A DNA stretch of 63,974 nt, filler included, from Acidimicrobiia bacterium (lineage in GTDB: Bacteria > Actinomycetota > Acidimicrobiia > Spongiisociales > SHLN01), in assembly GCA_041619515.1 (NCBI GenBank). It is 6 parts of 6 records of this genome, joined end to end, with 100 filler letters (N's around TTAATTAATTAA, not from the genome) between each part and the next. Parts side by side here need not be neighbours in the genome. Positions count along the whole stretch, not along the records: positions 12,631 to 24,878 come from JBFKDW010000084.1; 5 more parts are not named here. One strand, 5' to 3'. The position numbers were made by a program, and so were the translations under genes. The notes under the pieces are model-generated. The model did no database searches. It saw only the letters and a list, made by a program, of their open reading frames with translations, and had not been told where the DNA came from. Below, piece by piece: positions 351 to 60,869 of the stretch (position 1 is the first letter of the stretch; every line of letters starts with the position of its first letter).

Positions 351-929
351 TCAGGAACTCTTCTGGGCCTCTGCCCGCGCCCGCTTGCGGTAGGCGGCGA
401 CGTTCTCGCGGGTGGCGCAGGTGGTGGAACAGTGGCGCCGGGATTTGTTCTTCGAGGTGTCGACGAACACGTCGACACAGTCATGTGACGAGCACGAGCC
501 GAAGCGGTCGAGCCCAACGTCGCACAGCACCACGCTGAGGCCCATCGCCGTTGCCGCCGCCAGCCACTCGGCGGTGCCGCCCGAGCGCGGCTCGAAATGC
601 ATGTGGGGTTCCGCCGAGTGCACGCTGATGCGAGGGACCGCCTTGGCCCCGGCCAGGATCTTGTTGAGCAAGGCGGCCGCCTCGCGTTCGTCCTGGGCAG
701 AGAACACCTCGCGCAGCTGCTCCCGCAGGCGGCGAACCGCTTTCAGGTCTTGGTCGGTCGGGGTTCCTGGATGCCAGTCCTCACGATGCCAGTCCTGCTC
801 GTAGCCGGCCAGGAAGGCATTCAGCTCGTCGACGGTGGTCAGATGGTCGGTCTGCGCCACGATTTCATTGGTGTTCACCAGGTCGACCGCCATCCTGACG
901 GCTAGATCATCGTAAGTGGAGAAATTCAC
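351..929 (-). CDS. CGNR zinc finger / ABATE domain putative transcription regulator
   Basis: N-terminal 'AVDLVNT'; C-terminal C-x4-C...FVDTSKNKSRRHCSTTCATRENVAAYRKR zinc finger. Confidence 0.9.
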   Translation of the reverse strand: MNFSTYDDLAVRMAVDLVNTNEIVAQTDHLTTVDELNAFLAGYEQDWHREDWHPGTPTDQDLKAVRRLREQLREVFSAQDEREAAALLNKILAGAKAVPRISVHSAEPHMHFEPRSGGTAEWLAAATAMGLSVVLCDVGLDRFGSCSSHDCVDVFVDTSKNKSRRHCSTTCATRENVAAYRKRARAEAQKSS

Positions 930-958
930 TTGACCTATTACCTCGGCTGTTGTATGGT
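930..958 (+). promoter_or_regulatory. Putative housekeeping-sigma promoter for the 1002/1268 genes
   Basis: TTGACC-N17-TATGGT in an AT-rich divergent intergenic region. Confidence 0.55.
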
Positions 959-1001
959 GTAACTATCAAACACATCATAGACCATTACAGAGAGGATAGC
1001 A

Positions 1002-1271
1002 ATGGTCAACATCCTGGAAATCCACAGCGCTCTCACCAACGGCCGGCACAGCCCCACCCGCCCTGCCGGCCGGCGAGCAGAGCGGCCGTCTCACCTGCGG
1101 CCGCCCGTCCGGCCCCTCGACGAGGTGCTGCGCGACCTGGCGCAGACCCGCCGGCACTACGAGAACCTCCGGATCGGCGACGGCCCCCTGGCCGAGCGGG
1201 CGCACCTGGTCTCCGCGCTCCACGCCCTCCGGGCCGAGGCCTCCCTCGCCCGCATTGCGAGGAGGTCATGA
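1002..1271 (+). CDS. Small hypothetical protein
   Basis: AGAGGA RBS before ATG; stop overlaps the next start (ATGA). Confidence 0.6.
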   Translation: MVNILEIHSALTNGRHSPTRPAGRRAERPSHLRPPVRPLDEVLRDLAQTRRHYENLRIGDGPLAERAHLVSALHALRAEASLARIARRS

Positions 1272-1495
1272 TGCACCACCCGATCACCGCTCAGCTTCTC
1301 ACCGAGATCGTCATGAACGAGCGCAGGCGAGAGGCCGATCAGCAGCGACTGGCCAACCGGGGACGGGCCCGCCACCGGGGTATGGACCACGCCTCCCCAG
1401 CCCGCCGGCTCGGCCGCGGGCCCCGCGACACCCGTCCCCGCGGCCGGGTGCGGCGGCGGCGAGCAGACCGGCGGGCGGACGGTCGCCGCCCGTAG
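1268..1495 (+). CDS. Small Arg-rich hypothetical protein (MMHHPITAQLLTEIVMNERRREADQQRLA...)
   Basis: GGAGG immediately upstream; ATGA translational coupling with the previous gene. Confidence 0.55.
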   Translation: MMHHPITAQLLTEIVMNERRREADQQRLANRGRARHRGMDHASPARRLGRGPRDTRPRGRVRRRRADRRADGRRP

Positions 1496-1498
1496 GCG

Positions 1499-2002
1499 TC
1501 ACAGGCGTGAGAACGTCACCAGCGGAACGTAGAACCATGCCCACAGTGCCAGAGCCGCTATCGCCGAGACCGTGAGGGCGGCCAGCACCGAGCCCGCCAC
1601 CACGATCGCGACCAGATACACGGCGGCGGTCAATGCGGCGGTGAATGTGATGGTCCCGGCGATCGTCATCCGCACGGCGTAGGCGAGGTGTCGCTCCGAG
1701 TGGCGCCGCACTCCCGACACGGGTGCGCGCACCCGTTGGTGGGCACTGGGCGCAATCAGCAGGATCGAGGAAACCGCCGAACCGAGAAAGGCCGCCATGA
1801 AGAGGTACTTCTCTCCGGTGGCGAGCTCGGCAAAGGGCGCTTGGAACGGGAGCGTCAGGAGGAACGCAAACAGCACCTGCACGCCCGGCAGGGTGGTGCG
1901 CAGGCCCTCCAGCACCGCTCTGAACTCGTCGTCCACGCGTTCGGTGTCCTCAGACCCCGGGTGGGTGTCGGGCCGCTCGTCGAGAATCTGGTTGTCGCTC
2001 AT
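1499..2002 (-). CDS. DUF6328 family membrane protein
   Basis: Motif LEGLRTTLPGVQVLFAFLLTLPFQ..F and 4 TM segments; start placed at the ATG 9 nt after a SigB-type promoter. Confidence 0.85.
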   Translation of the reverse strand: MSDNQILDERPDTHPGSEDTERVDDEFRAVLEGLRTTLPGVQVLFAFLLTLPFQAPFAELATGEKYLFMAAFLGSAVSSILLIAPSAHQRVRAPVSGVRRHSERHLAYAVRMTIAGTITFTAALTAAVYLVAIVVAGSVLAALTVSAIAALALWAWFYVPLVTFSRL

Positions 2003-2011
2003 CAGCTCGAG

Positions 2012-2037
2012 ATACCCACATCTGCCGGCAGCCAACC
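2012..2037 (-). promoter_or_regulatory. SigB/SigF-type promoter (GGTT-N16-GGGTAT) for the DUF6328 gene
   Basis: Minus strand reads GGTT-ggctgccggcagatgt-GGGTAT, 9 nt before the ATG. Confidence 0.6.
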
Positions 2038-2055
2038 CCGGGGCGGGCCCGGAGG

Positions 2056-2081
2056 GTTTGGCTCAACGGCCCGGCGGGTAA
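2056..2081 (+). promoter_or_regulatory. SigB/SigF-type promoter (GTTT-N16-GGGTAA) for the AI-2E gene
   Basis: GTTT-ggctcaacggcccggc-GGGTAA, 9 nt before GTG 2091. Confidence 0.65.
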
Positions 2082-2090
2082 CGGCCCGGT

Positions 2091-3254
2091 GTGAGCAACG
2101 AACGCCAGCCTGAAACCATTCGCGAGGGCACGCCGCCCCGCCTCCACGTCCTGGATGCCATCCGGGACGGCCAGGTGCCCTCGTGGCTTCGCACCGCAGC
2201 AGCCGTCGGGTGGCGGCTGCTGGTTGTGTGCGCCGTCGTGTTCGTGGCCGCCGCCGTGGTCAGCCGCTTCCAGGTCATCGTGGTCCCGCTCATCGTCGCC
2301 CTGCTCATCGCCGCCTTCCTCGCCCCGCCGGTGCGCTGGATGGAGCGGCGCGGTGTCCATTCGCTGGTGGCCACCTGGATCGTGATCCTGGCCGGCGCAG
2401 CCCTGGTTGCAGGACTCGGCTGGCTGATCGTTCCCCGCCTGGCGGCCGGATTCAATGACTTCGGCACGGCCCTCACCGAGGCGTACCAGGACTCCAGGGC
2501 CTGGCTCATCGAAGGACCGCTCGCTCTCGACCCCGCAGATGTGCAAGACACCGAGGACCGCATCGCCCACCGGTTCCGGCAGTTGGCGGAAACCGGCTTG
2601 ACGACCAGGGCAACCCTCATCGTCGAAGTGATCACCGCCATCTTTCTCACCCTCGTCATCACCTTCTTCTACGTCAAGGACGGCCCGGCATTTCGCGACA
2701 AGATCCTCGGCCTCGTTCCGGAAGAGGACCGCAGGCGCGCCCGGGCGGCCTTGCACGAAGGCTGGTGGGTGACCCAGCGATACCTGCTCGCAGTGGTAGT
2801 CGTCGGGGCCGTCGATGCGGTGATCATCGGGGCCGGCCTCGCCGTCATCGGCGTGCCCCACGTCCTCTCGCTGATGGCGCTGACCTTCCTTGCCGCCTTC
2901 TTTCCACTGGTCGGCGCGATCTTCGCCGGCGGTGTGGCAGCCATGCTCGCCCTCGGAGCGGGCGGTGTGTCCGACGCCTTGCTCGTGATCGGATTGACGG
3001 TCATCGTCCAGCAGGTGGACGGAGACGTCGTGGCGCCGCTGGTCTACTCCCGGGCGGTCGATCTCCATCCCCTCGCCGTCCTCCTGGCGCTGACCGCCGG
3101 GGCTGTGATCGGCGGCATCATCGGAGCCTTCCTCGCCGTCCCGGCTCTGGCGGTCACTCTGGCAGTGGCGCGCACATGGAGGGCACCGGCCGGCGAGCTG
3201 GACCAGCCTGCGTCGGTGCGTGCGGCCGAGCCATCCGCAGCAGCCGCCGGCTGA
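2091..3254 (+). CDS. AI-2E family transporter
   Basis: Multi-TM protein with FFYVKDG, FFPLVGA and QQVDG..V.P....AVDLHPLAVLLAL motifs. Confidence 0.9.
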   Translation: MSNERQPETIREGTPPRLHVLDAIRDGQVPSWLRTAAAVGWRLLVVCAVVFVAAAVVSRFQVIVVPLIVALLIAAFLAPPVRWMERRGVHSLVATWIVILAGAALVAGLGWLIVPRLAAGFNDFGTALTEAYQDSRAWLIEGPLALDPADVQDTEDRIAHRFRQLAETGLTTRATLIVEVITAIFLTLVITFFYVKDGPAFRDKILGLVPEEDRRRARAALHEGWWVTQRYLLAVVVVGAVDAVIIGAGLAVIGVPHVLSLMALTFLAAFFPLVGAIFAGGVAAMLALGAGGVSDALLVIGLTVIVQQVDGDVVAPLVYSRAVDLHPLAVLLALTAGAVIGGIIGAFLAVPALAVTLAVARTWRAPAGELDQPASVRAAEPSAAAAG

Positions 3255-3295
3255 CGCCTGCCCCTGAGGTCCCGGCGGTCTCCGAAGCGAGAAAT

Positions 3296-3321
3296 GTTTA
3301 GCCGGCGTTGCCGGCGGGTAT
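3296..3321 (+). promoter_or_regulatory. SigB/SigF-type promoter (GTTT-N16-GGGTAT) heading the stress operon
   Basis: GTTT-agccggcgttgccggc-GGGTAT upstream of the GGGAGG RBS of 3354. Confidence 0.7.
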
Positions 3322-3353
3322 CCCAGGAGCAAGCTATTCGAGGGGAGGACAAC

Positions 3354-3956
3354 ATGACCCAGACGCAAGTCACCGAGACCGAGGTGCGTGGCGCCGAAGT
3401 CGACATGACCACGATCAAGGACCGCTTCGGCGGCGGCGATGTCATCGCCGCTCTCGTCGGGATGTTCGTCGGGCTGGGCGTGCTCGTATTTCTAGGAGCA
3501 TTGCTCGCAGCCGGCGGCGCGTCCATCGACTACCAGCTCAACGCCATCGACATCGACGGCAACCTGCAGGAGATCGAAGTGGTCGGCGCCATCGTGGCCA
3601 TCGCAGTCGTATTCGCGTCGTTCCTGGCCGGGGGCTATGCCGCCGGAAGAACGGCACGGTACGAAGGCGGAGTCAACGGCCTGAGCGCGTCCCTGCTGTT
3701 CGTGCTGCTCGTCGCCGCCTTCGGGGCGCTCGGCACGTGGGTGGGAGTTGAGTACAACGCTTTCGGCGCAGCCGACCTGCCGAACTGGTTCGCCCAGTTC
3801 GACGCTCAGGACGTCACGCTCAAAGCCGTCGCAGCCGCAGCTGCCGCAATCGTGGCCAGCCTGCTCGGCGGATACATCGGTGGAGTGCTCGGAGAGCAGT
3901 ACCACCGCGACGCCGACGCCACGCTCGTGCAAGAGACCGTCGACCAAGTCGCCTAG
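3354..3956 (+). CDS. 4-TM membrane protein (YrzE/TIGR04086-like)
   Basis: GGAGG RBS; RFGG, GGYAAGRTARYEG and GGYIGGVLGEQYHR motifs typical of stress-cluster membrane proteins. Confidence 0.75.
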   Translation: MTQTQVTETEVRGAEVDMTTIKDRFGGGDVIAALVGMFVGLGVLVFLGALLAAGGASIDYQLNAIDIDGNLQEIEVVGAIVAIAVVFASFLAGGYAAGRTARYEGGVNGLSASLLFVLLVAAFGALGTWVGVEYNAFGAADLPNWFAQFDAQDVTLKAVAAAAAAIVASLLGGYIGGVLGEQYHRDADATLVQETVDQVA

Positions 3957-3982
3957 CCGACAAACCCACGAAAGGAGGAGCC

Positions 3983-4042
3983 ATGTATATCGGAGTCGGA
4001 ACCCTGATCCTGATCATCCTCATCCTGATGTTGATCTTCTAA
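3983..4042 (+). CDS. 19-aa hydrophobic microprotein MYIGVGTLILIILILMLIF (below the ORF-track cutoff)
   Basis: Strong AAAGGAGGAG RBS just upstream of ATG; a single TM helix; sits inside the operon. Confidence 0.75.
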   Translation: MYIGVGTLILIILILMLIF

Positions 4043-4076
4043 CAAGCCACCACTCAGCACAACGAAAGGACCAACT

Positions 4077-4430
4077 ATGACAAGAACCACATTGAGCGCT
4101 TCGTCCCTCATCGGCAACGACGTTCGCAACGGGGTCGGCGACGATCTCGGTGATGTCAAAGACATCATGATCGACGTCGAAACCGGCACCATCGCATACG
4201 CCGTGCTCGACATGGGGGGCTTCCTCGGCATCGGAAACAAGCTGTTCGCGGTGCCGTGGCGGGCGCTGTCGCTCGACACCGACTCGCACGAGTTCGTGCT
4301 CGACGTCGACAAGGAGACGCTCGACAACGCTCCCGGCTTCGACAAGGACAACTGGCCGGACTTCTCCGACCGGGTGTGGGGCACCACCGTGTATGCGCAC
4401 TATCGGCTCCGTCCTCACTGGGAGAACTGA
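4077..4430 (+). CDS. PRC-barrel domain protein
   Basis: LSASSLIG..V....GDDLGDVKDIMID..TG.IAYAVL..GGFLGIGNKLFAVPW..L; NAPGFDKDNWPD. Confidence 0.92.
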   Translation: MTRTTLSASSLIGNDVRNGVGDDLGDVKDIMIDVETGTIAYAVLDMGGFLGIGNKLFAVPWRALSLDTDSHEFVLDVDKETLDNAPGFDKDNWPDFSDRVWGTTVYAHYRLRPHWEN

Positions 4431-4501
4431 GCCGCACGCGTCACGACGAGAGAGCAATCGCCCCGGGAATCGCCGGGGCCGACACGGAAGGAACAACGAA
4501 G

Positions 4502-4702
4502 ATGGAATGGCATGAGAAGCTTCAGAACGAAGGCACGTGGCAGAACCTCAAAGGCAAGCTGCGTGAAGAATGGGCCGAGCTCACCGACGATGAGCTCGAA
4601 GAGGCCCGCGCCAACTGGGACCAGTTCGTCGGCACGGTCAAGGAGAAGACCGGGGCCGCCGCTGAAACCGTCGAAACCAAGGTGAAAGCCCTGGTCTCCT
4701 AG
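4502..4702 (+). CDS. CsbD/YjbJ family general stress protein
   Basis: EGTWQNLKGKLREEWAELTDDEL....WDQFVG.VKEKTG; GAAGGA RBS. Confidence 0.88.
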   Translation: MEWHEKLQNEGTWQNLKGKLREEWAELTDDELEEARANWDQFVGTVKEKTGAAAETVETKVKALVS

Positions 4703-4724
4703 CCGGCCACATTCGGCAACTCAC

Positions 4725-4754
4725 GAGGGCCCGCAGCCACGGCTGCGGGCCCTC
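4725..4754. terminator. Bidirectional GC-rich hairpin between convergent genes
   Basis: GAGGGCCCGCAGCC-AC-GGCTGCGGGCCCTC, a perfect 14-bp inverted repeat. Confidence 0.75.
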
Positions 4755-4792
4755 CGGCGTCTACGCCCACATCGTCGGTTGCTCGAGCGCCT

Positions 4793-5137
4793 CTAGAAGA
4801 AGTTCAGCTCTTTCCCGGCTTTGGCGTAGAGGGCAAGACGGTGCTCCATCATGTCGCCGGCGAAGTACGTGTGGAACGCGAAGCCTTCACAGGTCAGCAT
4901 CGCCTTGTCGCACAGGACGATGAACTCGTCGTTGTCGACGATCTCGAAGATGGTTTCCATCTCACCACGCACGACCATCATCCCGTCGTTGACGTGCATG
5001 AGGATGAGCGGCTCGGTCACCTTGTTCTCGGCAACCAGCTTCTCGAAGAACATGCGGAAATCCGCCAGGTTCTCGAGTGCCTTGGCCTCCCGACCGGGAA
5101 GTGCCTTGACCCACTTGAACACAAGTGCATAGTCCAC
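4793..5137 (-). CDS. Hypothetical protein (114 aa)
   Basis: GAGGAG RBS, normal codon usage, globular composition (PGREAKALE motif). Confidence 0.75.
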   Translation of the reverse strand: MDYALVFKWVKALPGREAKALENLADFRMFFEKLVAENKVTEPLILMHVNDGMMVVRGEMETIFEIVDNDEFIVLCDKAMLTCEGFAFHTYFAGDMMEHRLALYAKAGKELNFF

Positions 5138-12530: not shown

Positions 12531-12630
12531 NNNNNNNNNNNNNNNNNNNNNNNNNNNNNNNNNNNNNNNNNNNNTTAATTAATTAANNNNNNNNNNNNNN
12601 NNNNNNNNNNNNNNNNNNNNNNNNNNNNNN
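12531..12630. other. Artificial contig linker
   Basis: N44-TTAATTAATTAA-N44, with stops in all six frames. Confidence 0.98.
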
Positions 12631-17157: not shown

Positions 17158-17658
17158 TCATTCCGCGGCAGCCTCAGCCTCGTCTTCGGCCTGAGCCGGT
17201 GGCTTGTCTCCGACCGTCTCGTCGTGTAGCTGGAGCCAGCGGGCGAGGCCGGCTTCCCCGAGCTGCCGGTAGCGCTGGGCGAACCGCTCGGCGTCGGCCG
17301 CAGTGACCTCTCCGGGCTCGCGAGCCGCCAGGTAGAACTCGATGTCGGTCGCCAGCGCGTCCATTCTCGCCCGGTTCGTCGTGTGCATGATCCAGAGCCC
17401 GCGATGATCGAAGAACGCCTCCCAGGCGTTCAACACCACAATGACGGCGCCGAACACGAGAGCGATGTTCTTGGTGGCTTCCTGGTTGACGAAGTCGCCT
17501 TCCAGCCCGAGCAGAACGGTGATTCCCCCCGCCAAGACCACGGCGAGCGTCTTGAGGACGAGCGCCTTGAATCGTTCCCAGCGCAGCCGTTTCGTCTGCC
17601 AGGCGATCCTCTCCTGCAAGTCACGCCGCAGGTATTCGAGAGACTTGGCGATCTCCAT
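17158..17658 (-). CDS. SLATT / DUF4231 two-TM domain protein
   Basis: I.W, two TM helices, then AWEAFFDH.GLW.......M..L helical C-terminus; GGGAG RBS. Confidence 0.75.
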   Translation of the reverse strand: MEIAKSLEYLRRDLQERIAWQTKRLRWERFKALVLKTLAVVLAGGITVLLGLEGDFVNQEATKNIALVFGAVIVVLNAWEAFFDHRGLWIMHTTNRARMDALATDIEFYLAAREPGEVTAADAERFAQRYRQLGEAGLARWLQLHDETVGDKPPAQAEDEAEAAAE

Positions 17659-17838
17659 TCCGATTCTCCCTTCGGGCCGCTACCGAACAGGGGCGGTTCT
17701 CCCGGACCCCACCCCAAGTTACACAGGGAGGCTTGATCATGTCTCGGTTTGCCCAGTTCGGCCGACACGCTCTGTGGTGTAGCTGTACGCTTATTCCCAG
17801 GGGTCGGCTTCGCCGGCATGGGCAGACGGGAGCTGGGC

Positions 17839-18273
17839 ATGGGAGCACGTGAAGCAACTGCGGTTGGTGACGCCGCCGAACCGGTCGCAACCGAAACCGG
17901 TCCGCCGGCGCTGCGAGATCGGCTCGGCGCCTGGTTGGCTGCCAACGCCACTGTGGTCAATTGGGTCGTCTCTCTCGTCGCAGCGGGGTTACTCCTCTGG
18001 GCGGCCGTGCAGTGGTCGGGCAAGGCCACCGAGTTGACATCGCCCTGCCAGGAAGCTGCCGTGGCACCGGCTCTGTGCGACGAGGTGCCCGAGTTCCTGC
18101 AAGGCGCCCAGTTCGCGGTAGCCATGATCGGTATCGCGGCCGCGGCGGTGGCGGCAGTGTTGTCGCTGGCCCAGGCGTTCCTCGGTCGGCGCCTTCCGCT
18201 CGTCAAGTGGGCCGCCTTCGTGCTCCTGGGAGCGACCGTCGTGTGGTTCGGCATCTACTGGATCGGACGGTAG
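17839..18273 (+). CDS. 3-TM hypothetical membrane protein
   Basis: Three hydrophobic segments with a Cys pair in the loop; start uncertain (17818 or 17839). Confidence 0.65.
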   Translation: MGAREATAVGDAAEPVATETGPPALRDRLGAWLAANATVVNWVVSLVAAGLLLWAAVQWSGKATELTSPCQEAAVAPALCDEVPEFLQGAQFAVAMIGIAAAAVAAVLSLAQAFLGRRLPLVKWAAFVLLGATVVWFGIYWIGR

Positions 18274-18307: not shown

Positions 18308-21300
18308 TCAGCTGCTGCCCTTGAGCAGGATGCGTCGATCACCCTCACCGGCGTAGAGGAGCTCCAGAACCTCGCAGCGGTCGCCGGTGAGGTCGAAGGT
18401 CACGGTCAACACACAGGACTCGTTCGGCCCGAGTGAGGTGCCGACACAGCCCGTGGCCTGGAAGTTGGTGAGGCCCGCGATCCCGGTGATCGTGACCGGC
18501 GTGCCACCGACGTTGACGACGTCGACCTGGTGCGTCGACGTGGTGGAGTCGAAGGCCAGCAGCTCGCTCTCGATCTCGACGAATGCCGGACCGGCCGGCG
18601 GCGGCACCGTCGGCGGAGGAGTGGGCCCCGCTTGTCCACTGCCGGTCAGGGCAACCTTCGTTTCGCCCGGTGTGCCGTCGTGGGTGATCACCAGCTCCGT
18701 CGGAGGGGCAGGCCCGACTGCGGATGGAGTGAATACCACCGTTATCAGGCAGGAGTCTCCACTCGCCAGGGGCGCCCCTTCACAGTCCGAATCGGCTGTG
18801 AAGGCCTCGCTGCCCGAGATGGCCGGTGGTTCGATGGTGAGCGGGCCGTTGCCGACGTTGGTGAGGGTTACGACTCGCTCGACGCTGGTTCCGACCGCCA
18901 CGGTGGGGAAGGCGATGGCATCCGGTTCGGCCGCAGCCTCGCCCCTTCGGGCCGGGATCTCTACCTGTGCTGTGGCCGCGCTCTGGTCGACCGAGTCTTC
19001 GGCTACGGTTATCTCGAACTGGAGGGTGTTCCCACCCGCCGCATCCGGTAGCACCTGAACCCGGGCGATGAGCGTCTGCGCGCCGGCCAGCTCCCGTAGC
19101 TCGCACGTCGAGTCGCACGTCCGTCCACCTTGATCGACGAGCTCGATGCTGAGCTCGGGCGGAGCCTCGGAGACTCGCACGGTAACGCCGCTCACCGGTG
19201 AGTCTCCACTGCTCACATTGACCTCGTATTCGACCGTTGTGCCGATCACGGCCTCTCTGCTCGGTGGAGAGATCTCGACTGAGAGGACCGGGCCCACACC
19301 ATTCTGGGAAGTCGAGGTCGTGCCTGAGGTTGTTGTCGTCGTGTCGCCGTTGCCGCCGTCGACGTCCGGGGGGGTGGTGCCGGTTCCGCCGTTGCCCGTA
19401 GGTGATGTCGTGTCGGGCGTGGGTGGCTCATCGGCCATGACAACCTGAAGGTCGGCTGTGATGGTGCCTTCGGGGTCCGTGACGCTCGCCGAGAGCGCAG
19501 CCCGGGCATTGGTGGTCGATGCCCGGGTGTACACGACCCGCAGCTCGCACGACGACTCGCGCTCCAGCACGGCGATGGTGCCATCGGGGTCCAGCAGGCA
19601 CGGCCCGACCAGATCGATGGCGTCGGCCGCCAGCGGGGCGTCGCCGCCCAGCGAGACGCTGTCCGAATCGCGATCCACGTCCCCGCGTCCTCCGTCGACG
19701 GTGAATTCGGGGGAATCGACGCCAATCGCTATCGGTCCGATGTCGTCCTCGGTCTCATTGACCAGAGAGATCACCCGCGGGACGGACTCTCCTATCTCGC
19801 CGCTCGAGATGAACGTCAGGCCGGACGGTTCGAAGGTGAGCTGCTTGGTCCAACCCCCCACCGAGGCCCACGCCGTTACGAAGAGCAGCAGGGCGCCTAC
19901 CAGCCCTGCAACCACCGCGGCCCCGGCCGGGACCTTGGCCGGCACTGCTTTGACCAGCTTGAGGTTCTGCTTGGTGACGTTGGCCGCCCTGGTCTCGCCG
20001 AGTTCGGTTCGCAGGTCGAGTGCCTCGGTGAGATAGGCGAGGCCGGCGGCATCGTCTCCCAGCCCGATTGCCCGCGCGCCCAGTTGGTGCAAGGCCCACG
20101 CCTTGGCGCTGAGCCCCGTTTCCCCCAGGCCCTCGGCGGCGGCGAGCGCATGCTCGAGGACCTGCTTCCAGGCGGCCCAATGCAGACCCAGGGCGATCCC
20201 ACGATCGGTTGCTCTGGCCACCCGGATCACTTCGGTCCACTGCTCGGCTTCCACGCCCCATTCGAGGGCCCGCAGAATGAACTCCCGGTCACGGTTGATG
20301 TCGTCGTTGGTGACCTCGGGTGACTCCGACCAATCGGCCAGGTTGCTGAGGAGCGCTCCCATCCAGTCAGATGGGCTCCAGTGTTTGAGGGCTCCTTCGG
20401 CTACCGTCCCCGTCAAGCTGTAGCGGGGCGAATGCTGTTCGACTCGCTCCTGGTCGATCAGGGCCCGGATTTCCTCGTGGAGCGAAGTAGGCAGGCCTTC
20501 CAGGTCGTCTTTCAGGATTCGCTCGAGCAGCGTCAGGCTCACCGGCACGAGGGCGGCGTCGAGGATCTCGGCGACTTTCTGTTGGATCGGTGTGAGGTCG
20601 GCTCTCACCGATTCTGCGACCACTTCGCTCGGCTCGGCAGTCCCCTGATAGGTGCGGGCTACCTCCGCCAGCGACTTGCCACCCAGCACGGCGTTGCGTG
20701 CCTCGATGAGATGTCCGGGATGGCCGTCGAGCGCCTTGCAGATCTCCCGGGCGGCGTCCCGTTCGTCCTCGGCGATCGGCCGGCCGAGCTGCTTCTCGAA
20801 GAAGGTGAGGGCGTCGTCGGCGGCCAGGCCGCGCAGCGGCCGGCCTTTGGGGAAGGGGGCGGCGGATTCCGCCGAGACCACGAAGGTCGACATGGGAAGC
20901 GTGTTCACGATGTTCTCGACTGTGTCGGCATCGAGGTGGACGTCGTCCAGGATGACGAGCGCCTGCTTCTCCTGCAGGGCAAGCCGGATGGTCTCGGGGC
21001 TCTGCTTGAGCGGCGGATCAGTGGTGTAGAACGCCTTGTACAGATTCTGCAGGAGGTCCGCGTAAATGGTGTCTTCCACGTTTACATCTTCCGGCGTTTC
21101 TGCGACTTCGGGATCCGGTGCAGGTCGGCTGGACGGTGCGGCCGGCACCTTCTGATAGACGACGCCGTCCGGGAAGTCGCCGGTGTCGTCGAATGCAATG
21201 CTTCGCAACAGTGCGGTTTTCCCCCATCCGGGCCCGCCGTAGGCACCGAAGGTCTCCCCGTTCCCGAGCGCCAGCCGGGCTGCGTCTAGCTCTGCGTTGC

Positions 21301-22225
21301 GCCCGATGAATCCCTTGAGGGGCTTGAGGAATGGCTTGACGGGGGCGGGATGTTCCACCGGGGTGGGAACCTCGTCATCTTTCACCCGGACGACTACGGC
21401 ACCGTCGTCTGACTCCAGATCGACCGTGACCATCACCTCGCCAGACACCGCAACGGTTGCCTTGCCGTGCTTGGTTTCTACGGCCTCTGCCTCGACCGGC
21501 CGGCGCTCGGAGACCATGGCGGTAGCGCTGCCGATCTCATATGGTTCGAGTGTTCGGTGGGCGATCCCGATGTCGAGCGCAAACCCCAGCTTGTCGTCGC
21601 GCTCGAATAGCTGGGCTTTGCCCGCCGCCAGGGCGTCGTCGAACGTCATCACACCGTCACTGTTGCGTCCCATCGTCTCGGGATGGCCGTCGGTCGGGTT
21701 GTCCCGCAGCTTGGCGCTGGACGCGAACCCGGTGCACTCGATCGCCAGATAGTTGCCGCTATCGACCAGGTCTCGAAGGTCTTGGATTTCCTTGACGAGG
21801 TCACCCAGCTTCGCCTTTCCGGCTCGTTTCAGGCCGTTCCAATTTGCGAGATCGTCGGATATCGATACGACGACGAAGGCGTGGCTCTGCATGATGACCA
21901 GCACGGGTAGCAGGTTGTAGGCCTCGGCCAGCCCGGCGAACAGGACCGAGAGGTCGAGGCATGTTCCGCGGCCTGCTCCGGAGAAGATGTCGGCAGGGGT
22001 GCGGATCTCCTGCAGCTTGTCGTCGTATCGAAACGGCTCGAGGTCGTAGTAGATACCCGCCTGCAGCAGCTTGGTGTAGATCAGCTCGAGTTTCCGACGG
22101 CGGCCGTCGGGCGTATCTTCCAGGTCGAAGGTGTTTTCGTCCAGCTTTCCGAGCAGCGGCTCGGCGCGCACGGTGACGTACTTCGCCAACTCCTTCTCGC
22201 TGAACTTCGACCAGGGGGGATACAC
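18308..22225 (-). CDS. Multidomain membrane STAND/NB-ARC protein: papain/transglutaminase-like domain, NB-ARC, TPR, TM, Ig-like (ASH/choice-of-anchor D, DUF11-like) repeats
   Basis: GTCLDL/HAF/IECTG; FIGR..E, GGPGWGKT, LVILDDV, LDGHP; AWALHQLG TPR; TM at about 19855-19923; TLTNVGNGPLTI and GDSC.ITVVFTP repeats; GGAGGT RBS. Confidence 0.88.
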   Translation of the reverse strand: MYPPWSKFSEKELAKYVTVRAEPLLGKLDENTFDLEDTPDGRRRKLELIYTKLLQAGIYYDLEPFRYDDKLQEIRTPADIFSGAGRGTCLDLSVLFAGLAEAYNLLPVLVIMQSHAFVVVSISDDLANWNGLKRAGKAKLGDLVKEIQDLRDLVDSGNYLAIECTGFASSAKLRDNPTDGHPETMGRNSDGVMTFDDALAAGKAQLFERDDKLGFALDIGIAHRTLEPYEIGSATAMVSERRPVEAEAVETKHGKATVAVSGEVMVTVDLESDDGAVVVRVKDDEVPTPVEHPAPVKPFLKPLKGFIGRNAELDAARLALGNGETFGAYGGPGWGKTALLRSIAFDDTGDFPDGVVYQKVPAAPSSRPAPDPEVAETPEDVNVEDTIYADLLQNLYKAFYTTDPPLKQSPETIRLALQEKQALVILDDVHLDADTVENIVNTLPMSTFVVSAESAAPFPKGRPLRGLAADDALTFFEKQLGRPIAEDERDAAREICKALDGHPGHLIEARNAVLGGKSLAEVARTYQGTAEPSEVVAESVRADLTPIQQKVAEILDAALVPVSLTLLERILKDDLEGLPTSLHEEIRALIDQERVEQHSPRYSLTGTVAEGALKHWSPSDWMGALLSNLADWSESPEVTNDDINRDREFILRALEWGVEAEQWTEVIRVARATDRGIALGLHWAAWKQVLEHALAAAEGLGETGLSAKAWALHQLGARAIGLGDDAAGLAYLTEALDLRTELGETRAANVTKQNLKLVKAVPAKVPAGAAVVAGLVGALLLFVTAWASVGGWTKQLTFEPSGLTFISSGEIGESVPRVISLVNETEDDIGPIAIGVDSPEFTVDGGRGDVDRDSDSVSLGGDAPLAADAIDLVGPCLLDPDGTIAVLERESSCELRVVYTRASTTNARAALSASVTDPEGTITADLQVVMADEPPTPDTTSPTGNGGTGTTPPDVDGGNGDTTTTTSGTTSTSQNGVGPVLSVEISPPSREAVIGTTVEYEVNVSSGDSPVSGVTVRVSEAPPELSIELVDQGGRTCDSTCELRELAGAQTLIARVQVLPDAAGGNTLQFEITVAEDSVDQSAATAQVEIPARRGEAAAEPDAIAFPTVAVGTSVERVVTLTNVGNGPLTIEPPAISGSEAFTADSDCEGAPLASGDSCLITVVFTPSAVGPAPPTELVITHDGTPGETKVALTGSGQAGPTPPPTVPPPAGPAFVEIESELLAFDSTTSTHQVDVVNVGGTPVTITGIAGLTNFQATGCVGTSLGPNESCVLTVTFDLTGDRCEVLELLYAGEGDRRILLKGSS

Positions 22226-22266
22226 GGTGGGCTACACCTCCCGTCCTGGCTGGAGAGGAGTGTGTT

Positions 22267-23715
22267 TCATCCCATGACCTCGAAGACATCGTGGACCGGC
22301 TCGGGATCGGTGGGCCCCGGATCCACCACTGCCAGCTCGATCCGGTGCAGGCCGGGTTTGAGGCCTTCGAGGGTGGCATGCCAACCGTCCTCACCCTCGA
22401 TCAGGTCGAATGGCTGCGTCGGCTGTCCCGTATCCACGCCCGTGACCCGGGCCACCAGCTGCCCTTCGACGCCGACCGGTTCGTTTCCCTGGATGGTGAG
22501 GACGTTTGCCGAGATCGTGACCGGCTCTTCTTCCAAGTACAGATCGTCTACTTCGAGCGAGAGCGCCAGCCCCTCCGCCGCTTCGCCTTCGATTTTGAGC
22601 CCGCGAAGGGCTTCGAGCTCGTCCTCGGACTGGAGCTGCTTGATCTCCTCCAAGAGGATCTCGAGAAGAGTGCCGTTGGCTTGCAAAGAGCTGTGGCGCT
22701 CCGGGAAGAAGATCGGCCCGGCCTTCTTCTCCATGCCGATGGGCACGGCCGAGACTCGCGGGACGGTTCCGTCCCCGCCTTCTTGATGGGTCCCCACTCC
22801 CTTTGGTGGCTTCTTGAGGATCTCGACTTTGCCGTCGGCAAAGATGGCCGACTGGCTGGTCTTCTGTCTGACTCCCACTACCGGGATGAGCTTGTAGGCG
22901 TCGGCGGGACGCGCTTTGGCGTGTTCCTCGATGTCCAGGTGAAACTGGAAGGCATGTTCTGCCATCGCCCGATCAATGCCGTGGATGTCGAAGTCCTTCG
23001 GGTACAGCATCTTCTCTTCATCCCCACCACCGACCATCGGGTACCGCGGCATCAACTCGTACACGGACGGGAATGTCCGCATCGCATCGGTCAGGTCGAG
23101 GAAGGCCTTTTTGAATCCGTTCGCCAGCGTGCCGACGGCGTCGACGGATCCCCGATGGGGAGTCCCGAATGTGATGAGAGCCTTGCAGGTCGGCCAGCCC
23201 TCGAGCACCTCCAGGTAATACCGGGACACGAGGCCGCCCATGCTGTGGGCCAGGAGGATCACCTTGGCGTCGGGGTAGTGCTGCTGCCATGCCGGCAGCT
23301 TCTCATCGATGAGCTCCTTGAGGCGCTGCGCCGAGCTGCGATTGCTGCGGCGCCAGTCGTAGGGGAACTCGTAGAAGTTGTTGGGCTCGGGGTCGGCGAT
23401 CTCGCCCGGCGCCACCTCGAAGTTGTCTGTGATCAGCCGCGAGATGGCCGTGTACCCATCGATTTTCCATAGGCCGGGGATGATGTGGGTGTCGGACAGG
23501 ACCCGCGTGGCCTCAATGCCGTCTTTGAGGACCTTCTGGTTCGGGTCGTCGTCCTGGACGTGCATCGCTTCGAGTTCCCTGCCGAAGTTCCTCAATATCT
23601 TGAACACGGCGCTGCCCGAGTTCGCCCACAGGTCTTTCTCGTTCTTCTGGAGGACGCTTCCACTGATGCCGGGCAGGAGTACGACGAGGTCTTCGATCGG
23701 CGGCTTGTTTCCCAT
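22267..23715 (-). CDS. LCAT/PGAP1-like alpha/beta-hydrolase (lipase/acyltransferase) with C-terminal beta-sandwich
   Basis: LLPGISGS.L, FPYDWRRS, AHSMGG nucleophile elbow, GTPHRGS, GDGTVP, HSSL; no signal peptide. Confidence 0.9.
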   Translation of the reverse strand: MGNKPPIEDLVVLLPGISGSVLQKNEKDLWANSGSAVFKILRNFGRELEAMHVQDDDPNQKVLKDGIEATRVLSDTHIIPGLWKIDGYTAISRLITDNFEVAPGEIADPEPNNFYEFPYDWRRSNRSSAQRLKELIDEKLPAWQQHYPDAKVILLAHSMGGLVSRYYLEVLEGWPTCKALITFGTPHRGSVDAVGTLANGFKKAFLDLTDAMRTFPSVYELMPRYPMVGGGDEEKMLYPKDFDIHGIDRAMAEHAFQFHLDIEEHAKARPADAYKLIPVVGVRQKTSQSAIFADGKVEILKKPPKGVGTHQEGGDGTVPRVSAVPIGMEKKAGPIFFPERHSSLQANGTLLEILLEEIKQLQSEDELEALRGLKIEGEAAEGLALSLEVDDLYLEEEPVTISANVLTIQGNEPVGVEGQLVARVTGVDTGQPTQPFDLIEGEDGWHATLEGLKPGLHRIELAVVDPGPTDPEPVHDVFEVMG

Positions 23716-23725
23716 GCTCTCTCCC

Positions 23726-24878
23726 TCAGTTCTCGTTGAAGAATGCGTCGCGGGCGGCCACCCATTCCTCGTACGCGGCCCACGGATCCTCGCCCGGCTC
23801 GGTGTCGGCTGCCGGCACCGGCACCGGCGGTTTTGGTGTAATCGTCACGAGCAGCATCCCGAACAACAGGGTGATGAGCGCCACCAGGGCCAGGTCCATC
23901 GTCTTGACGCCGGTGAACGGCAGCTGCGGGCGGATGACCACAATTCCCTTGACCGCCACCCCGAACGCAGCGGTCAGCTCGTCGTCGCGGTTGTTCTCGA
24001 GATTCGGCTCCAGGTCGAGCCGCGGATGGCGAGCGAACACCGAGCTGAGCAAGGCGTCGTCGGCGGCACTGTCCGGGCTGACCAGGACATCCAGCGTGAT
24101 GTCGACGATGCCACCGGCGGGGATGGTCCCCAGTTCACACGCCACCACCCGGCCGCTGACCGTGCACGCGTCCGGTAGCAGCCCGAGGTCGGGCACGACG
24201 TCGTCGTCCAGCGTCAGTTCGGCGGTGACGTCGGGGACCGCCTGGTCACATAGGGTGTTCTTGACTGCGATCACGTACAGGAAGGCGTCGCCCGGTGCGT
24301 CGATGAGCGGGTCCCCGGTCACGGATCCGATCGGCCCGTCATCGGCCGGCCCGTCGGCCAATATCGCCACCAGGTCGCAGGTTGTGCTGTTGGTGAAGGT
24401 GCAGGTGACGGTTTCTCCCCCTTCAAGGTCGATGTTGGCCGGATCCGATCCGTCGCTGCAGTTGGCGACCAGGGCCCAGTTGGCCGGGACCGCCTCGGAC
24501 ACCGAGTAGGTGCCGGGTGCCAGCAGGCCCGAATCGTTGCGATCACCGTCTCCCAGCTGGAACCCGGGGCCGTAGCTGGTGGTGAAGCTGAAGGTCTGAC
24601 CCGATGGAGTGAACTCCCGCACCGACTTGACGACGATGATCCGACCCTGGTTGCCGTTGGTGGCCTGGTTGGTGAAGGTGCAGGTGATGATGTCGCCTGC
24701 TGTCACGGTGTAGGTGGCGGTGCCGGTGCTGATGTCGCCGGTGGCGTCGCCGCCGATGCAGGTGATGTCGGTGAGGGTCCACCCGGGAAGGCTGGTTTCG
24801 GTGACCGTGTAGGTGCCGGGGTCAACGTCGAGGGAGGCGGTGTCGTTGTCGGCCAGGGTGGCGGTGAGGTCCCCGGTG
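23726..24878 (-). CDS. Cell-surface repeat protein (SpaA/prealbumin-like repeats + DUF11), LPFTG sorting motif + TM; 5' end truncated by the contig break
   Basis: PGTY.V.E..P..W...C......G....CTFTN repeats, VACELGTI, LPFTG; the frame stays open to the linker. Confidence 0.85.
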
Positions 24879-24978
24879 NNNNNNNNNNNNNNNNNNNNNN
24901 NNNNNNNNNNNNNNNNNNNNNNTTAATTAATTAANNNNNNNNNNNNNNNNNNNNNNNNNNNNNNNNNNNNNNNNNNNN
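24879..24978. other. Artificial contig linker
   Basis: N44-TTAATTAATTAA-N44. Confidence 0.98.
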
Positions 24979-29300: not shown

Positions 29301-30485
29301 TCAGGCCTGGTGAGACCGTCCCGCCCGGGTCACCAGGAAATCGTCGAGCTTGATCCACGGCTCGACTTCGAACTCGGTGCTGTCGAGATACCCGGACCCG
29401 TTTGCCGCCTTCAAGATCCAGGGGTCGTAGGGCTTCTCCACCTGTTGGCCCGCCTTCACCTCGACGCGACGCGGCGGAATCGGGTCCTGAAAGGCGAGGG
29501 GCGTGATGGTTTCCACCCCCCTGCGATGCAAGACGCTCTCGTGGATCACGGGCTTGTCGGCGCGGCCCGACGGCCACGCCCGCTGCGCCCGGCGGAAAAC
29601 CTTGGCCGATCGCTTGCCGCGGGAGTCGTGCATGTAGTCGCCGGGGTCTTCCTCGTTCGGTCTCACCCGGTCCGGCTGGGTGTCGCCCTTCAAGCGCAGG
29701 CCACACGACACCGCCTGTTGCAGCAGCCAGGAGTACGGAATATTGGCGAGGGCCTTGCCGGAGGCGTATCCGCCTCCCACGTCGGTGTGCATGCCGGCAA
29801 ACCACACCTGGCGGATCTGTCGGTCGGTGACATCGGGCGGCAGCGGGTTCCACAGGATCGGGTGGAACGTCTTGCGCTCGTCGTCGATTGCCAACGCCTG
29901 ATAGGCCCTGCGCACGTTGGAGCTGAGGTCGAAGTTATGGAACTTGTGCCGAAAGCCCGGCACCTTGTCTACGAATGCCGCGACACCCGGAAGCGGAAAG
30001 CCGAGGGCTGCAACGGTGTCGTACACACCCAGGAACTCGATCGGGACACGGGTAGTGCCGTTTCCGGCGAGGAAGTCATCGCGCCGCTTCTCATAGCTTG
30101 GGCGGCTCCGGCGTTTGTAGAGCTTGAACGCGTCGTCGATCAGCCGGGGACGCGAGCGGGGCAGGATGCCGAACTCGTTCACGAAGCTTGCCAGGCTCCG
30201 CACGGTGGCCGCTCCGCGGCTGAAGCCGAGCATAAAGATGTGGTCGCCCATCTGGTACTGCTCGAAGATGAAGAGATAGGCCTGTCGCATGTTCTCGGTG
30301 AAGCCGCGTCCGAAGGCGTTCCCGGTGACCTTGCGCCAGCCGGTGCCGGCACCGGCGTCGTAGAACAGCACTTGTTCGAAGGTCCGGTCCTCGGCGGCAT
30401 CGTAGATGTTGTAGATGTTCGTGTTGTAGCCCTTGCCACCTTCTTGGCCGGTGCCGTCCGACAGCACGACGATGTTCTTCGGCAT
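29301..30485 (-). CDS. DUF2235 (Tle1-like) alpha/beta hydrolase
   Basis: KNIVVLSDGTG, GFSRGA, GVYDTV, ALAIDDER, QVWFAGMHTDVGGG. Confidence 0.93.
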   Translation of the reverse strand: MPKNIVVLSDGTGQEGGKGYNTNIYNIYDAAEDRTFEQVLFYDAGAGTGWRKVTGNAFGRGFTENMRQAYLFIFEQYQMGDHIFMLGFSRGAATVRSLASFVNEFGILPRSRPRLIDDAFKLYKRRSRPSYEKRRDDFLAGNGTTRVPIEFLGVYDTVAALGFPLPGVAAFVDKVPGFRHKFHNFDLSSNVRRAYQALAIDDERKTFHPILWNPLPPDVTDRQIRQVWFAGMHTDVGGGYASGKALANIPYSWLLQQAVSCGLRLKGDTQPDRVRPNEEDPGDYMHDSRGKRSAKVFRRAQRAWPSGRADKPVIHESVLHRRGVETITPLAFQDPIPPRRVEVKAGQQVEKPYDPWILKAANGSGYLDSTEFEVEPWIKLDDFLVTRAGRSHQA

Positions 30486-30730
30486 CTCACCCTCCGAGGA
30501 TCGGCTCAACTCTGAGGCTATCAAATCGGAGGACACGCTCCCGGCCGGGCTCCCGATCCGATGGTGCCGATCGGGAGTCCTACGGCACGATCCAGAGGCG
30601 CTCTCGCACAGCAGAGCGAGAAGACGGCGGCTCTCCAGGAGAGAGATTGTGCCGCATGCGGGCAGATCGGCCGCCCCCGAGACCCCGCCGGGCACCCGGC
30701 TGCCTGCGCGACCGGGGCGGGTCACCTGAC

Positions 30731-36911: not shown

Positions 36912-37011
36912 NNNNNNNNNNNNNNNNNNNNNNNNNNNNNNNNNNNNNNNNNNNNTTAATTAATTAANNNNNNNNNNNNNNNNNNNNNNNNNNNNNNNNN
37001 NNNNNNNNNNN
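36912..37011. other. Artificial contig linker
   Basis: N44-TTAATTAATTAA-N44. Confidence 0.98.
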
Positions 37012-48917: not shown

Positions 48918-49017
48918 NNNNNNNNNNNNNNNNNNNNNNNNNNNNNNNNNNNNNNNNNNNNTTAATTAATTAANNNNNNNNNNNNNNNNNNNNNNNNNNN
49001 NNNNNNNNNNNNNNNNN
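48918..49017. other. Artificial contig linker
   Basis: N44-TTAATTAATTAA-N44. Confidence 0.98.
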
Positions 49018-60769: not shown

Positions 60770-60869
60770 NNNNNNNNNNNNNNNNNNNNNNNNNNNNNNN
60801 NNNNNNNNNNNNNTTAATTAATTAANNNNNNNNNNNNNNNNNNNNNNNNNNNNNNNNNNNNNNNNNNNN
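60770..60869. other. Artificial contig linker
   Basis: N44-TTAATTAATTAA-N44. Confidence 0.98.

Follow-up and report, generated by a model that had tools for sequence, protein, structure and literature searches.

The 63,974-nucleotide stretch of DNA analysed here (the window) is from an Acidimicrobiia bacterium (assembly GCA_041619515.1; genome G000, 3.1 Mb, 66% G+C) and consists of six contigs joined through N linkers. At the end of contig C84 (JBFKDW010000084.1), three minus-strand open reading frames (ORFs) lie in a row with gaps of 10 and 41 nt, and the starts of the two downstream genes, encoding a hydrolase and a membrane receptor, are preceded by purine-rich Shine-Dalgarno-like stretches. 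A first-pass annotation had described the co-oriented genes, their gaps and ribosome-binding sites, and had named catalytic residues (AHSMGG, Cys89 and the Walker A Lys, which is Lys336), all of which were confirmed. It had read the row as a candidate trans-envelope sensing/conflict system made of a surface protein, a lipase and a membrane NLR. The features of the row are as follows.

18308-22225, minus strand: single-pass membrane STAND/NLR receptor of 1305 amino acids, comprising a peptidase, a degenerate motif linker, an AP-ATPase/NB-ARC, tetratricopeptide repeats (TPRs), a transmembrane helix and an immunoglobulin (Ig) ectodomain
21530-22225, minus strand: transglutaminase-fold thiol peptidase domain, residues 1-232, with predicted triad Cys89/His115/Glu163
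21383-21478, minus strand: Val/Gly-rich linker, residues 250-281, in the position that the RHIM/BASS-like motif takes in the family; degenerate here
19946-21340, minus strand: STAND ATPase with helical/winged-helix and TPR part, residues 296-760; Walker A G330-T337, Walker B D427/D428, GHP 501-503
19865-19933, minus strand: single transmembrane helix, residues about 765-787, Lys-rich on its N-terminal side
18308-19855, minus strand: ectodomain, residues 791-1305, with ASH/choice-of-anchor-D type Ig domains, a DUF11-like domain by homology, Thr/Pro/Gly linkers and nine Cys
22267-23715, minus strand: LCAT/PGAP1-like alpha/beta hydrolase of 482 amino acids; triad Ser158/Asp315/His341; a linker with the conserved Arg371 leads to a C-terminal domain of about 100 amino acids
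23726-24878, minus strand, 5' end open: SpaA-repeat surface protein, 3' part only, with LPFTG at 23909-23923 and a membrane anchor; it continues on contig C127
24638-24878, minus strand: part of a 291-bp tandem SpaA repeat unit, the assembly break point

In the receptor, Pfam detected NB-ARC at E 1e-4, just under the cut-off, and ASH/HYDIN-type Ig domains. The ATPase-TPR part (residues 240-765) was modelled with a predicted local distance difference test score (pLDDT) of 89.9, and Foldseek matched this model best to Apaf-1 (3sfz, E 2.6e-9), then to PH0952 and plant NB-ARCs. The Walker A Lys was present in 89 of 93 aligned rows and the first Walker B Asp in 91, and the GHP motif was conserved. 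With its Walker A, Walker B and GxP motifs and its helical and winged-helix domains, the receptor fits the STAND AP-ATPase/NB-ARC clade, and by analogy with that clade it would undergo nucleotide exchange and oligomerisation triggered by a ligand. Its one hydrophobic helix, predicted at residues 765-783, directly follows the TPRs.

Relatives were sought with the ATPase-TPR core, which gave 161 confirmed relatives in a GTDB scan, the best 80 of them yielding 77 loci, and at least 55 metagenome loci. They occur in Anaerolineae, filamentous cyanobacteria, Acidobacteriota, Actinomycetota and others, including 7 of 401 genomes of the host class, and no match to the core was found on plasmids. The core end was complete and the 3' end uncut in 104 of 143 ORFs, and a helix (mean hydropathy of at least 1.6) stood just after the TPRs in 95 of these. 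The Cys count was even in 78 of 84 complete ectodomains (four of the 78 having no Cys). Lys/Arg were enriched on the N-terminal side of the helix in 13 of the 14 peptidase-type receptors; across the family they were higher there in 58 of 98 and lower in 26. The even Cys counts and the Lys/Arg bias support an N-in/C-out topology, in agreement with the earlier description of a STAND ATPase with a membrane anchor and extracellular Ig domains. What lies outside is exchangeable: among the 53 ectodomains scanned (of 63 listed), 32 matched ASH/Ig, FN3, LysM, PAN, CBM96, cadherin/Big_9, collagen, CARDB or DUF11 families and 21 matched none.

The N-terminal side is exchanged as well. Zn ribbons, DUF4062, CHAT, trypsin and the peptidase were found as additions to the core, and on a FastTree of 103 cores these labels switch 17 times, indicating that effectors have been exchanged; long branches meet on this tree, which gave no direction of change between fused and two-gene forms. 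Most members begin with a motif of consensus I.G.VSGQVAVG..ILQIG..HGGVV, in which the fraction of Gln/Asn/Gly/Val/Ile is 0.55 (0.22 in the core) and whose [IVL]Q[IVL]G core is present in 45 of 92; we take this motif to be RHIM-like. A hidden Markov model (HMM) built from the receptors only, and applied to our own gene calls at loci some of which are related, scored at least 12 bits in 16 of 96 adjacent same-strand genes and in 1 of 1112 other genes, so that the pairing of a motif at the receptor N-terminus with one in an adjacent gene holds in the wider family. Among 94 adjacent genes (48 scanned by Pfam, the others classed by pattern, from earlier scans or as near-duplicates), the partners included a 140-amino-acid helical protein (15, by pattern) and caspases (11), besides CHAT, TIR and a Bell-like protein.

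By hand-set labels, all 11 untruncated receptors with a fused enzyme had neither a strong motif nor a motif partner. Among the 75 receptors with no fused enzyme, 51 had a strong motif and 16 a motif partner, meaning that most of the non-fused receptors also stand without an adjacent partner. The contrast between fused enzyme and motif fits the split into two-gene and all-in-one forms in the accessible text of 10.1101/2020.01.06.895854. When the linker of the window receptor was aligned with the family motif, Gly262 and Gly275 were kept, Gln and Asn were absent and Asp/Glu made up 19%, and the motif HMM gave no score above 3 bits on the receptor, the hydrolase or the other locus proteins. Amyloid signalling at the window locus was therefore rejected, and the receptor reads as an all-in-one form in which the enzyme is fused and the motif degenerate.

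The peptidase domain was modelled with a pLDDT of 96.6. In a wide fold search, transglutaminase-fold proteins led, the best being 3kd4 (Z 9.1, root-mean-square deviation 3.1, 130 residues aligned), followed by PeiP, TglA, PeiW, PNGase and LapG at Z 7-8; these values are middling singly, and nearly the whole list belongs to one superfamily. A search of solved structures with the peptidase sequence profile gave nothing below E 0.8, and Foldseek alone gave no match at E 0.001. Among 152 homologues, the triad was conserved at Cys89 in 150, His115 in 152 and Glu163 in 151. The domain thus has the fold and the Cys-His-acid triad of transglutaminase-like thiol enzymes, and on the kept triad and the model it is plausible that it is active as a peptidase, which agrees with the protease-like output proposed earlier.

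The peptidase domain is a mobile N-terminal effector, found in 276 clusters at E 1e-30 on NACHT, nSTAND1, NB-ARC, beta-propeller and other bodies. It was not found in the 251 cyanobacterial and 251 Anaerolineae genomes searched and was present in 2 of 401 genomes of the host phylum; with so few genome matches, sampling of genomes was unable to extend the test of its pairing with the hydrolase. Viral contigs gave three partial peptidase matches, with no hydrolase.

For the hydrolase, Pfam detected LCAT and PGAP1, and the protein has neither a signal peptide nor a hydrophobic helix, so the first description of it as a signal-peptide-less LCAT/PGAP1-like serine hydrolase carrying AHSMGG was correct. 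Its triad is kept (Ser158 in 42 of 42 rows, Asp315 and His341 in 41 each), and its closest solved relative is group XV phospholipase A2, a phospholipase/acyltransferase (E 3e-4). Arg371 in the linker is kept in 39 of 42 rows, and stands as [IL]RG in 6 of 7 peptidase-linked copies; it is a candidate cut site only.

Conserved adjacency of lipase and NB-ARC genes, which the first-pass annotation had proposed to check, was not borne out. The hydrolase lies beside the receptor core at 1 of 77 genome loci and at none of the 55 metagenome loci among the matches listed, and hence does not follow the ATPase. On plasmids, seven matched the peptidase domain, three of them at 80% coverage or more, and in all three of these full-length copies (Streptomyces, CP090840.1; Rhizobium, NZ_CP140847.1; and Sphaerospermopsis; three phyla) a hydrolase of 40-46% identity is encoded directly upstream, with the peptidase on unrelated cytoplasmic sensors. 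A fourth plasmid carries the hydrolase directly upstream of a diverged peptidase, with MoxR and a SAV_2336-type gene (MoxR-vWA locus L183); the three other, partial matches had no hydrolase in their records. Taken from the other side, the hydrolase was found on 7 of 72,556 plasmids in eight places, seven of which were inspected, and in the remaining three of these seven plasmids it precedes CHAT genes (L181 assigned by reading). In P0011 and P0203 both domains are in one protein, apparently through a frameshift.

CHAT was present within 74 of the 85 longer hydrolase homologues. In the host order the hydrolase was present in 10 of 301 genomes, and in none of 13 of the host family; 6 of 8 other loci in the order are beside CHAT genes, while at L159 the hydrolase gene is followed by a TPR-rich ORF that is truncated, and L160 lies where its contig ends. 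A tree of 39 hydrolases split the peptidase-linked from the CHAT/C25-linked copies at support 100 (the labels of P0160, P0212 and P0227 were inferred). At the window locus, as in a protease-activated hydrolase module, the hydrolase gene adjoins a thiol peptidase fused to a sensor. The LCAT-like hydrolase accompanies the peptidase domain and not the receptor. The phospholipase-like output of the first-pass annotation therefore stands as far as the functional link is concerned, through the plasmid pairing and the tree; as a second output of the ATPase in parallel it does not, and the hydrolase is better read as the downstream partner of the peptidase. A complex prediction of hydrolase and peptidase domain scored 0.21 against a mark of 0.32, with no control pairs folded.

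Four Acidimicrobiia (L161, L162, L164 and L165) encode proteins with CHAT, a transmembrane helix and CBM9 beside LCAT-like genes; these proteins are another type of receptor protease that crosses the membrane once and goes with this effector family.

The favoured reading, to which we give even odds, is that the receptor senses conflict across the envelope and is coupled to an effector activated by protease cleavage. It draws on the topology, switch, peptidase and pairing results above, on the exchange of partners by the receptor core, on the patchy spread of receptor and hydrolase, and on the precedent of PMC12642450. If so, the Ig ectodomain would report a surface cue outside the membrane, such as adsorbing phage, damage to the wall, or a neighbouring or predatory cell, and clustering through the single helix would release the ADP-bound AP-ATPase held by the TPRs. 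Oligomerisation of the AP-ATPase would bring the fused Cys-His-Glu peptidase domains together. The hydrolase, presumably held latent by its C-terminal domain, could then be processed by the peptidase, with the Arg371 linker as candidate site, and the freed serine hydrolase may attack membrane lipid near the receptor, resulting in abortive death or dormancy. The computations establish the domains, the intact catalytic motifs, the topology signatures, the linkage of hydrolase and peptidase and the swapping of effectors and ectodomains, from which the cue, oligomerisation, cleavage, lipid substrate and death are inferred.

Several points weigh against this scheme. In the module of PMC12642450, a caspase cuts a hydrolase zymogen of about 33 kDa and the fragments kill, the substrate being unknown according to the accessible text; as that zymogen is caspase-cut, and as the 482-amino-acid hydrolase of the window does not resemble the hydrolase linked to caspases at L144 (E 9.8), the proposed mechanism is carried over by analogy. 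The fold matches of the peptidase domain span peptidases, deamidases and acyltransferases, and 2 of the 152 homologues have Ser at the nucleophile position. L142 (G028:C29, 9126-13124), the second peptidase-type receptor of genome G028, has its nucleophile Cys replaced by Ser and no adjacent hydrolase. Of the peptidase-type membrane receptors, about 16 in number, only 3 have a known gene context, and the hydrolase tree is a quick tree with two exceptions, L159 and P0209. PADLOC (PADLOC-DB 2023) gave no match at E 0.05 for five locus proteins, to Avs/AVAST, bNACHT or any other of its systems. The genes adjacent to the receptors are mostly housekeeping genes and not those of a defence island, and the TPRs could themselves be a cytoplasmic sensor.

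The last point leads to the best surviving alternative, which we nevertheless regard as unlikely: the TPRs would bind an intracellular (phage) protein, as in Avs, and the helix and Ig domains would only anchor the receptor, placing the lipase-like effector near its substrate, or be shed. The TPR part indeed sits between ATPase and helix, the same hydrolase-peptidase pair occurs with wholly cytoplasmic sensors, and in the closest relatives the helix ends in an Ala-X-Ala-like stretch, a possible signal-peptidase site. However, Ala-X-Ala near the helix end was found in only 14 of 98 family members, and ligand-binding types (LysM, CBM96 and PAN) are found outside. The TPR part is also short and conserved whereas the ectodomain is variable, which is the pattern expected of a sensor.

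Another, and improbable, explanation is non-lethal surface signalling, in which contact or adhesion would lead the peptidase-fold enzyme to modify other targets by deamidation or acyl transfer, and the LCAT-like enzyme to remodel lipids for aggregation, kin recognition or development. This would suit the housekeeping neighbourhoods, the phospholipase/acyltransferase that is the best solved relative of the hydrolase, the frequency of the receptor family in lineages with filamentous or aggregating members, and the surface adhesin-like gene upstream in G000, G028 and G306. Against it, the swappable partners (caspase, CHAT, TIR, DUF4062, trypsin with Trypco2, and Bell-like) are death or conflict effectors in the literature as far as its accessible text goes, and the distribution is patchy, with plasmid copies among transposases.

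The third reading concerns the surface gene. Pfam detected SpaA_4/SpaA_2 repeats in its ORF, and the protein has LPFTG and a hydrophobic stretch, while its tail is acidic and not basic as is usual; a sortase is encoded in the genome. The ends of C127 and C84 share 241 bp at 98.8% identity and a 33-bp exact overlap. The tandem joint of the 291-bp unit was seen in public runs at a depth of about 2-3 times that of the flanks, so the break is a collapsed repeat, and the signal peptide and N-terminus are on C127. The sortase-type Ig/SpaA surface protein of the first-pass annotation therefore holds in its repeats, LPFTG, helix and sortase; the ORF described is only its 3' part, and the tail differs from the usual type. 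Contig C68, considered as the missing 5' part, was rejected as it had no nucleotide match to the C84 end.

In G028, of the same order as the host and another family (contig C96, locus L002), surface gene, hydrolase and receptor are in the same order, with 44%, 66% and 50% identity to those of the window, and the assembly likewise breaks at a comparable point, where the overlap is 61 bp. In G306 an unrelated DUF7507/DUF11 surface gene is directly upstream of the receptor relative. In the congener G234, surface-protein homologues stand alone in housekeeping surroundings, with no receptor or hydrolase match. In the reading of these genes as an obligatory three-part machine, the wall-anchored SpaA protein would be a co-receptor, binding to the Ig ectodomain and passing the cue on. 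This reading draws on the shared order in G028, the different surface gene in G306 and the SpaA and DUF11 domains within receptor ectodomains. It is the least probable of the three, since 1 of the 77 genome loci has surface gene and hydrolase beside the receptor, the 94 adjacent genes included no other surface gene of LPxTG or Ig type, the G234 homologues stand alone, and two genomes can share one transferred cassette. The three-part layout is thus not a conserved unit as had been proposed, and the LPxTG protein is at most a locally linked surface gene with an accessory role.

Contig C127 (L001), which lies beyond the assembly break and upstream of the window locus, also carries a second LCAT-like hydrolase (510-1952, minus strand), divergent from a C25/caspase-clan-like peptidase (1968-3386, plus strand), before the 5' part of the surface gene (3606-4912, plus strand). 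The surface gene thus has a hydrolase-peptidase module on either side, and the two modules differ. The second hydrolase groups on the CHAT/C25-linked side of the tree, and P0160 and P0209 have this hydrolase-C25 link too. The C25-like peptidase and second hydrolase were rejected as parts of a conserved unit, being absent from G028, G306 and G234.

The other features of the window that concern the locus are the following; neighbourhoods across the linkers are not real.

17749-18273, plus strand: three-helix membrane protein converging on the receptor gene, in the same place in G028; no family matched in profile scans
17158-17658, minus strand: SLATT-domain two-helix membrane protein (NF033634, E 2e-20), 650 bp downstream of the receptor
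12531-12630, 24879-24978, 36912-37011, 48918-49017 and 60770-60869: artificial N linkers

No SLATT gene was found beside receptor relatives at the 77 genome loci. A sigma-70 promoter scan of the locus gave no sites, and terminator-like matches were uninformative. The locus is covered by public sequencing runs of three studies, and in two runs (X1 and X5) a second allele of the 5' part of the hydrolase gene, 23593-23710, has seven differences. A Tle1-like phospholipase domain protein at 29301-30725 is on another contig (C85), unrelated to the receptor locus.

In the wider family, the 140-amino-acid helical protein, with its motif N-terminal, is encoded directly downstream of motif-bearing receptors in several phyla (L014:12494-12922, L034:13445-13876 of Nostoc paludosum and a further 14 loci). 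Pfam gave no match for it, and it is a candidate new executioner or decoy; its likeness of 0.91 to TCAD2 in the ESM Atlas is a lead only, TCAD not being in the main text of PMC7159879. At L070:4257-4670, a protein that is Bell-like by its N-terminal sequence ends in a motif that corresponds to the N-terminal one of the membrane receptor next to it. L144:6651-17534 is a dense conflict locus with an MBL hydrolase, a motif-CHAT, a membrane receptor, an alpha/beta hydrolase, two caspases and a TPR protein. At L006, L011 and L057, receptor genes whose cores are almost identical stand in tandem within one locus, which suggests local expansion of the repertoire. The ectodomain of L142 ends in a 5'-nucleotidase C-terminal-like domain.

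The receptor family behind the locus is a larger result than the locus. Tentatively, and with somewhat less than even confidence, its members could be regarded as receptor NLRs, analogous in function to death or Toll-like receptors, in which a swappable outside sensor would act through one helix on an Apaf-1-like switch. This switch would signal either by RHIM-like amyloid templating to a partner (caspase, CHAT, TIR, Bell-like or the new helical protein) or, as in the window, by way of a fused transglutaminase-fold peptidase, the LCAT-type phospholipase being unlocked by it. To our knowledge, the characterised bacterial NLR-type sensors read cytoplasmic signals. If the proposal is true, bacteria would enter regulated death in response to an external cue, ahead of infection of the cytoplasm or in its absence. 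A widespread one-helix family with exchangeable ectodomains would make surface detection of attackers or non-kin by apoptosome-like signalling directly testable, and the new protease-effector pair, which cultured Streptomyces, Rhizobium and a cyanobacterium carry on plasmids, as well as the candidate amyloid motif and unannotated partner in cultured Nostoc, allow each part to be tested without the uncultured host.

Parts of this are known already, namely the linkage of STAND sensors to thiol peptidases and to hydrolase partners, NACHTs with several helices that are predicted to read periplasmic signals, periplasmic CLec STAND and amyloid coupling. ProA (NF058533), an anti-phage protein which we take to be part of the Prometheus system, shares the catalytic core of the peptidase (residues 46-171, E 6.5e-15), whereas the window protein scores 54 bits against a cut-off of 1500 and lacks the rest of the 1903-position model. 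Apaf-1, CED-4, plant NB-ARC proteins and Avs share with the window receptor the order effector, STAND and helical repeat and the intact Walker and GxP-type motifs. In the window, unlike in these NLRs, the TPRs are followed by a single transmembrane helix and a variable extracellular sensor, and PADLOC gave no match.

Pairs of hydrolase and thiol peptidase on STAND sensors were predicted in PMC7159879 and tested in PMC12642450, as described in their accessible text. In these modules, as in the window, a hydrolase gene immediately precedes the gene of a thiol peptidase that is joined to a variable sensor, which may be of STAND type, and the hydrolase-peptidase pair of L183 has a layout like the ternary systems of PMC7159879. 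The first-pass annotation knew of no characterised system with the three-part layout; its logic has been partly described, and the transglutaminase-fold/LCAT pair was not found in the literature searched, mainly open-access text and not figures or source data, and the same holds for a single-pass AP-ATPase family with exchangeable ectodomains and paired motif. The peptidase of PMC12642450 is caspase-like and that of the window transglutaminase-fold, the words transglutaminase, papain and LCAT not occurring in that text. The window pair does not have its caspase-like protease with an LcHydrolase carrying two Arg-Gly sites (LcHydrolase compared by description only); its hydrolase is a longer LCAT type with a C-terminal extra domain, and its sensor crosses the membrane. 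In the accessible part of PMC12642450, transmembrane STAND ATPases are named once, for Pepco proteases (Fig. 5A), and no second paper with that term was found in the literature searched; L147, with Trypco2 and a trypsin-STAND-transmembrane protein, may be what this figure shows, and the figure may therefore include the present receptor family.

The relatives resemble the BASS/RHIM NLR signalling of 10.1101/2020.01.06.895854 and 10.1101/2024.11.07.622273, as far as their accessible text describes it, in the short Gln/Asn/Gly/Val/Ile-rich motif that stands at the NLR N-terminus and again in an adjacent effector (Bell-like, TIR, CHAT or caspase), and in having all-in-one forms. They differ in spanning the membrane (the word transmembrane does not occur in the text of 10.1101/2020.01.06.895854) and in their commonest partner, the unannotated 140-amino-acid helical protein; in the window, the motif is degenerate. 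bNACHT proteins with transmembrane regions (10.1101/2022.07.19.500537) and periplasmic CLec STAND sensors diversified by diversity-generating retroelements (DGRs; PMC10907252) are likewise predicted, in the accessible text, to read membrane or periplasmic signals. That literature lists a transglutaminase-like peptidase among the effectors, as in the window, and the accessible text of PMC8195603 lists these effector types. These sensors belong to NACHT and nSTAND1 clades and have several transmembrane segments or CLec, whereas the window receptor, for which no DGR was seen, is an AP-ATPase with one helix and an Ig-type ectodomain.

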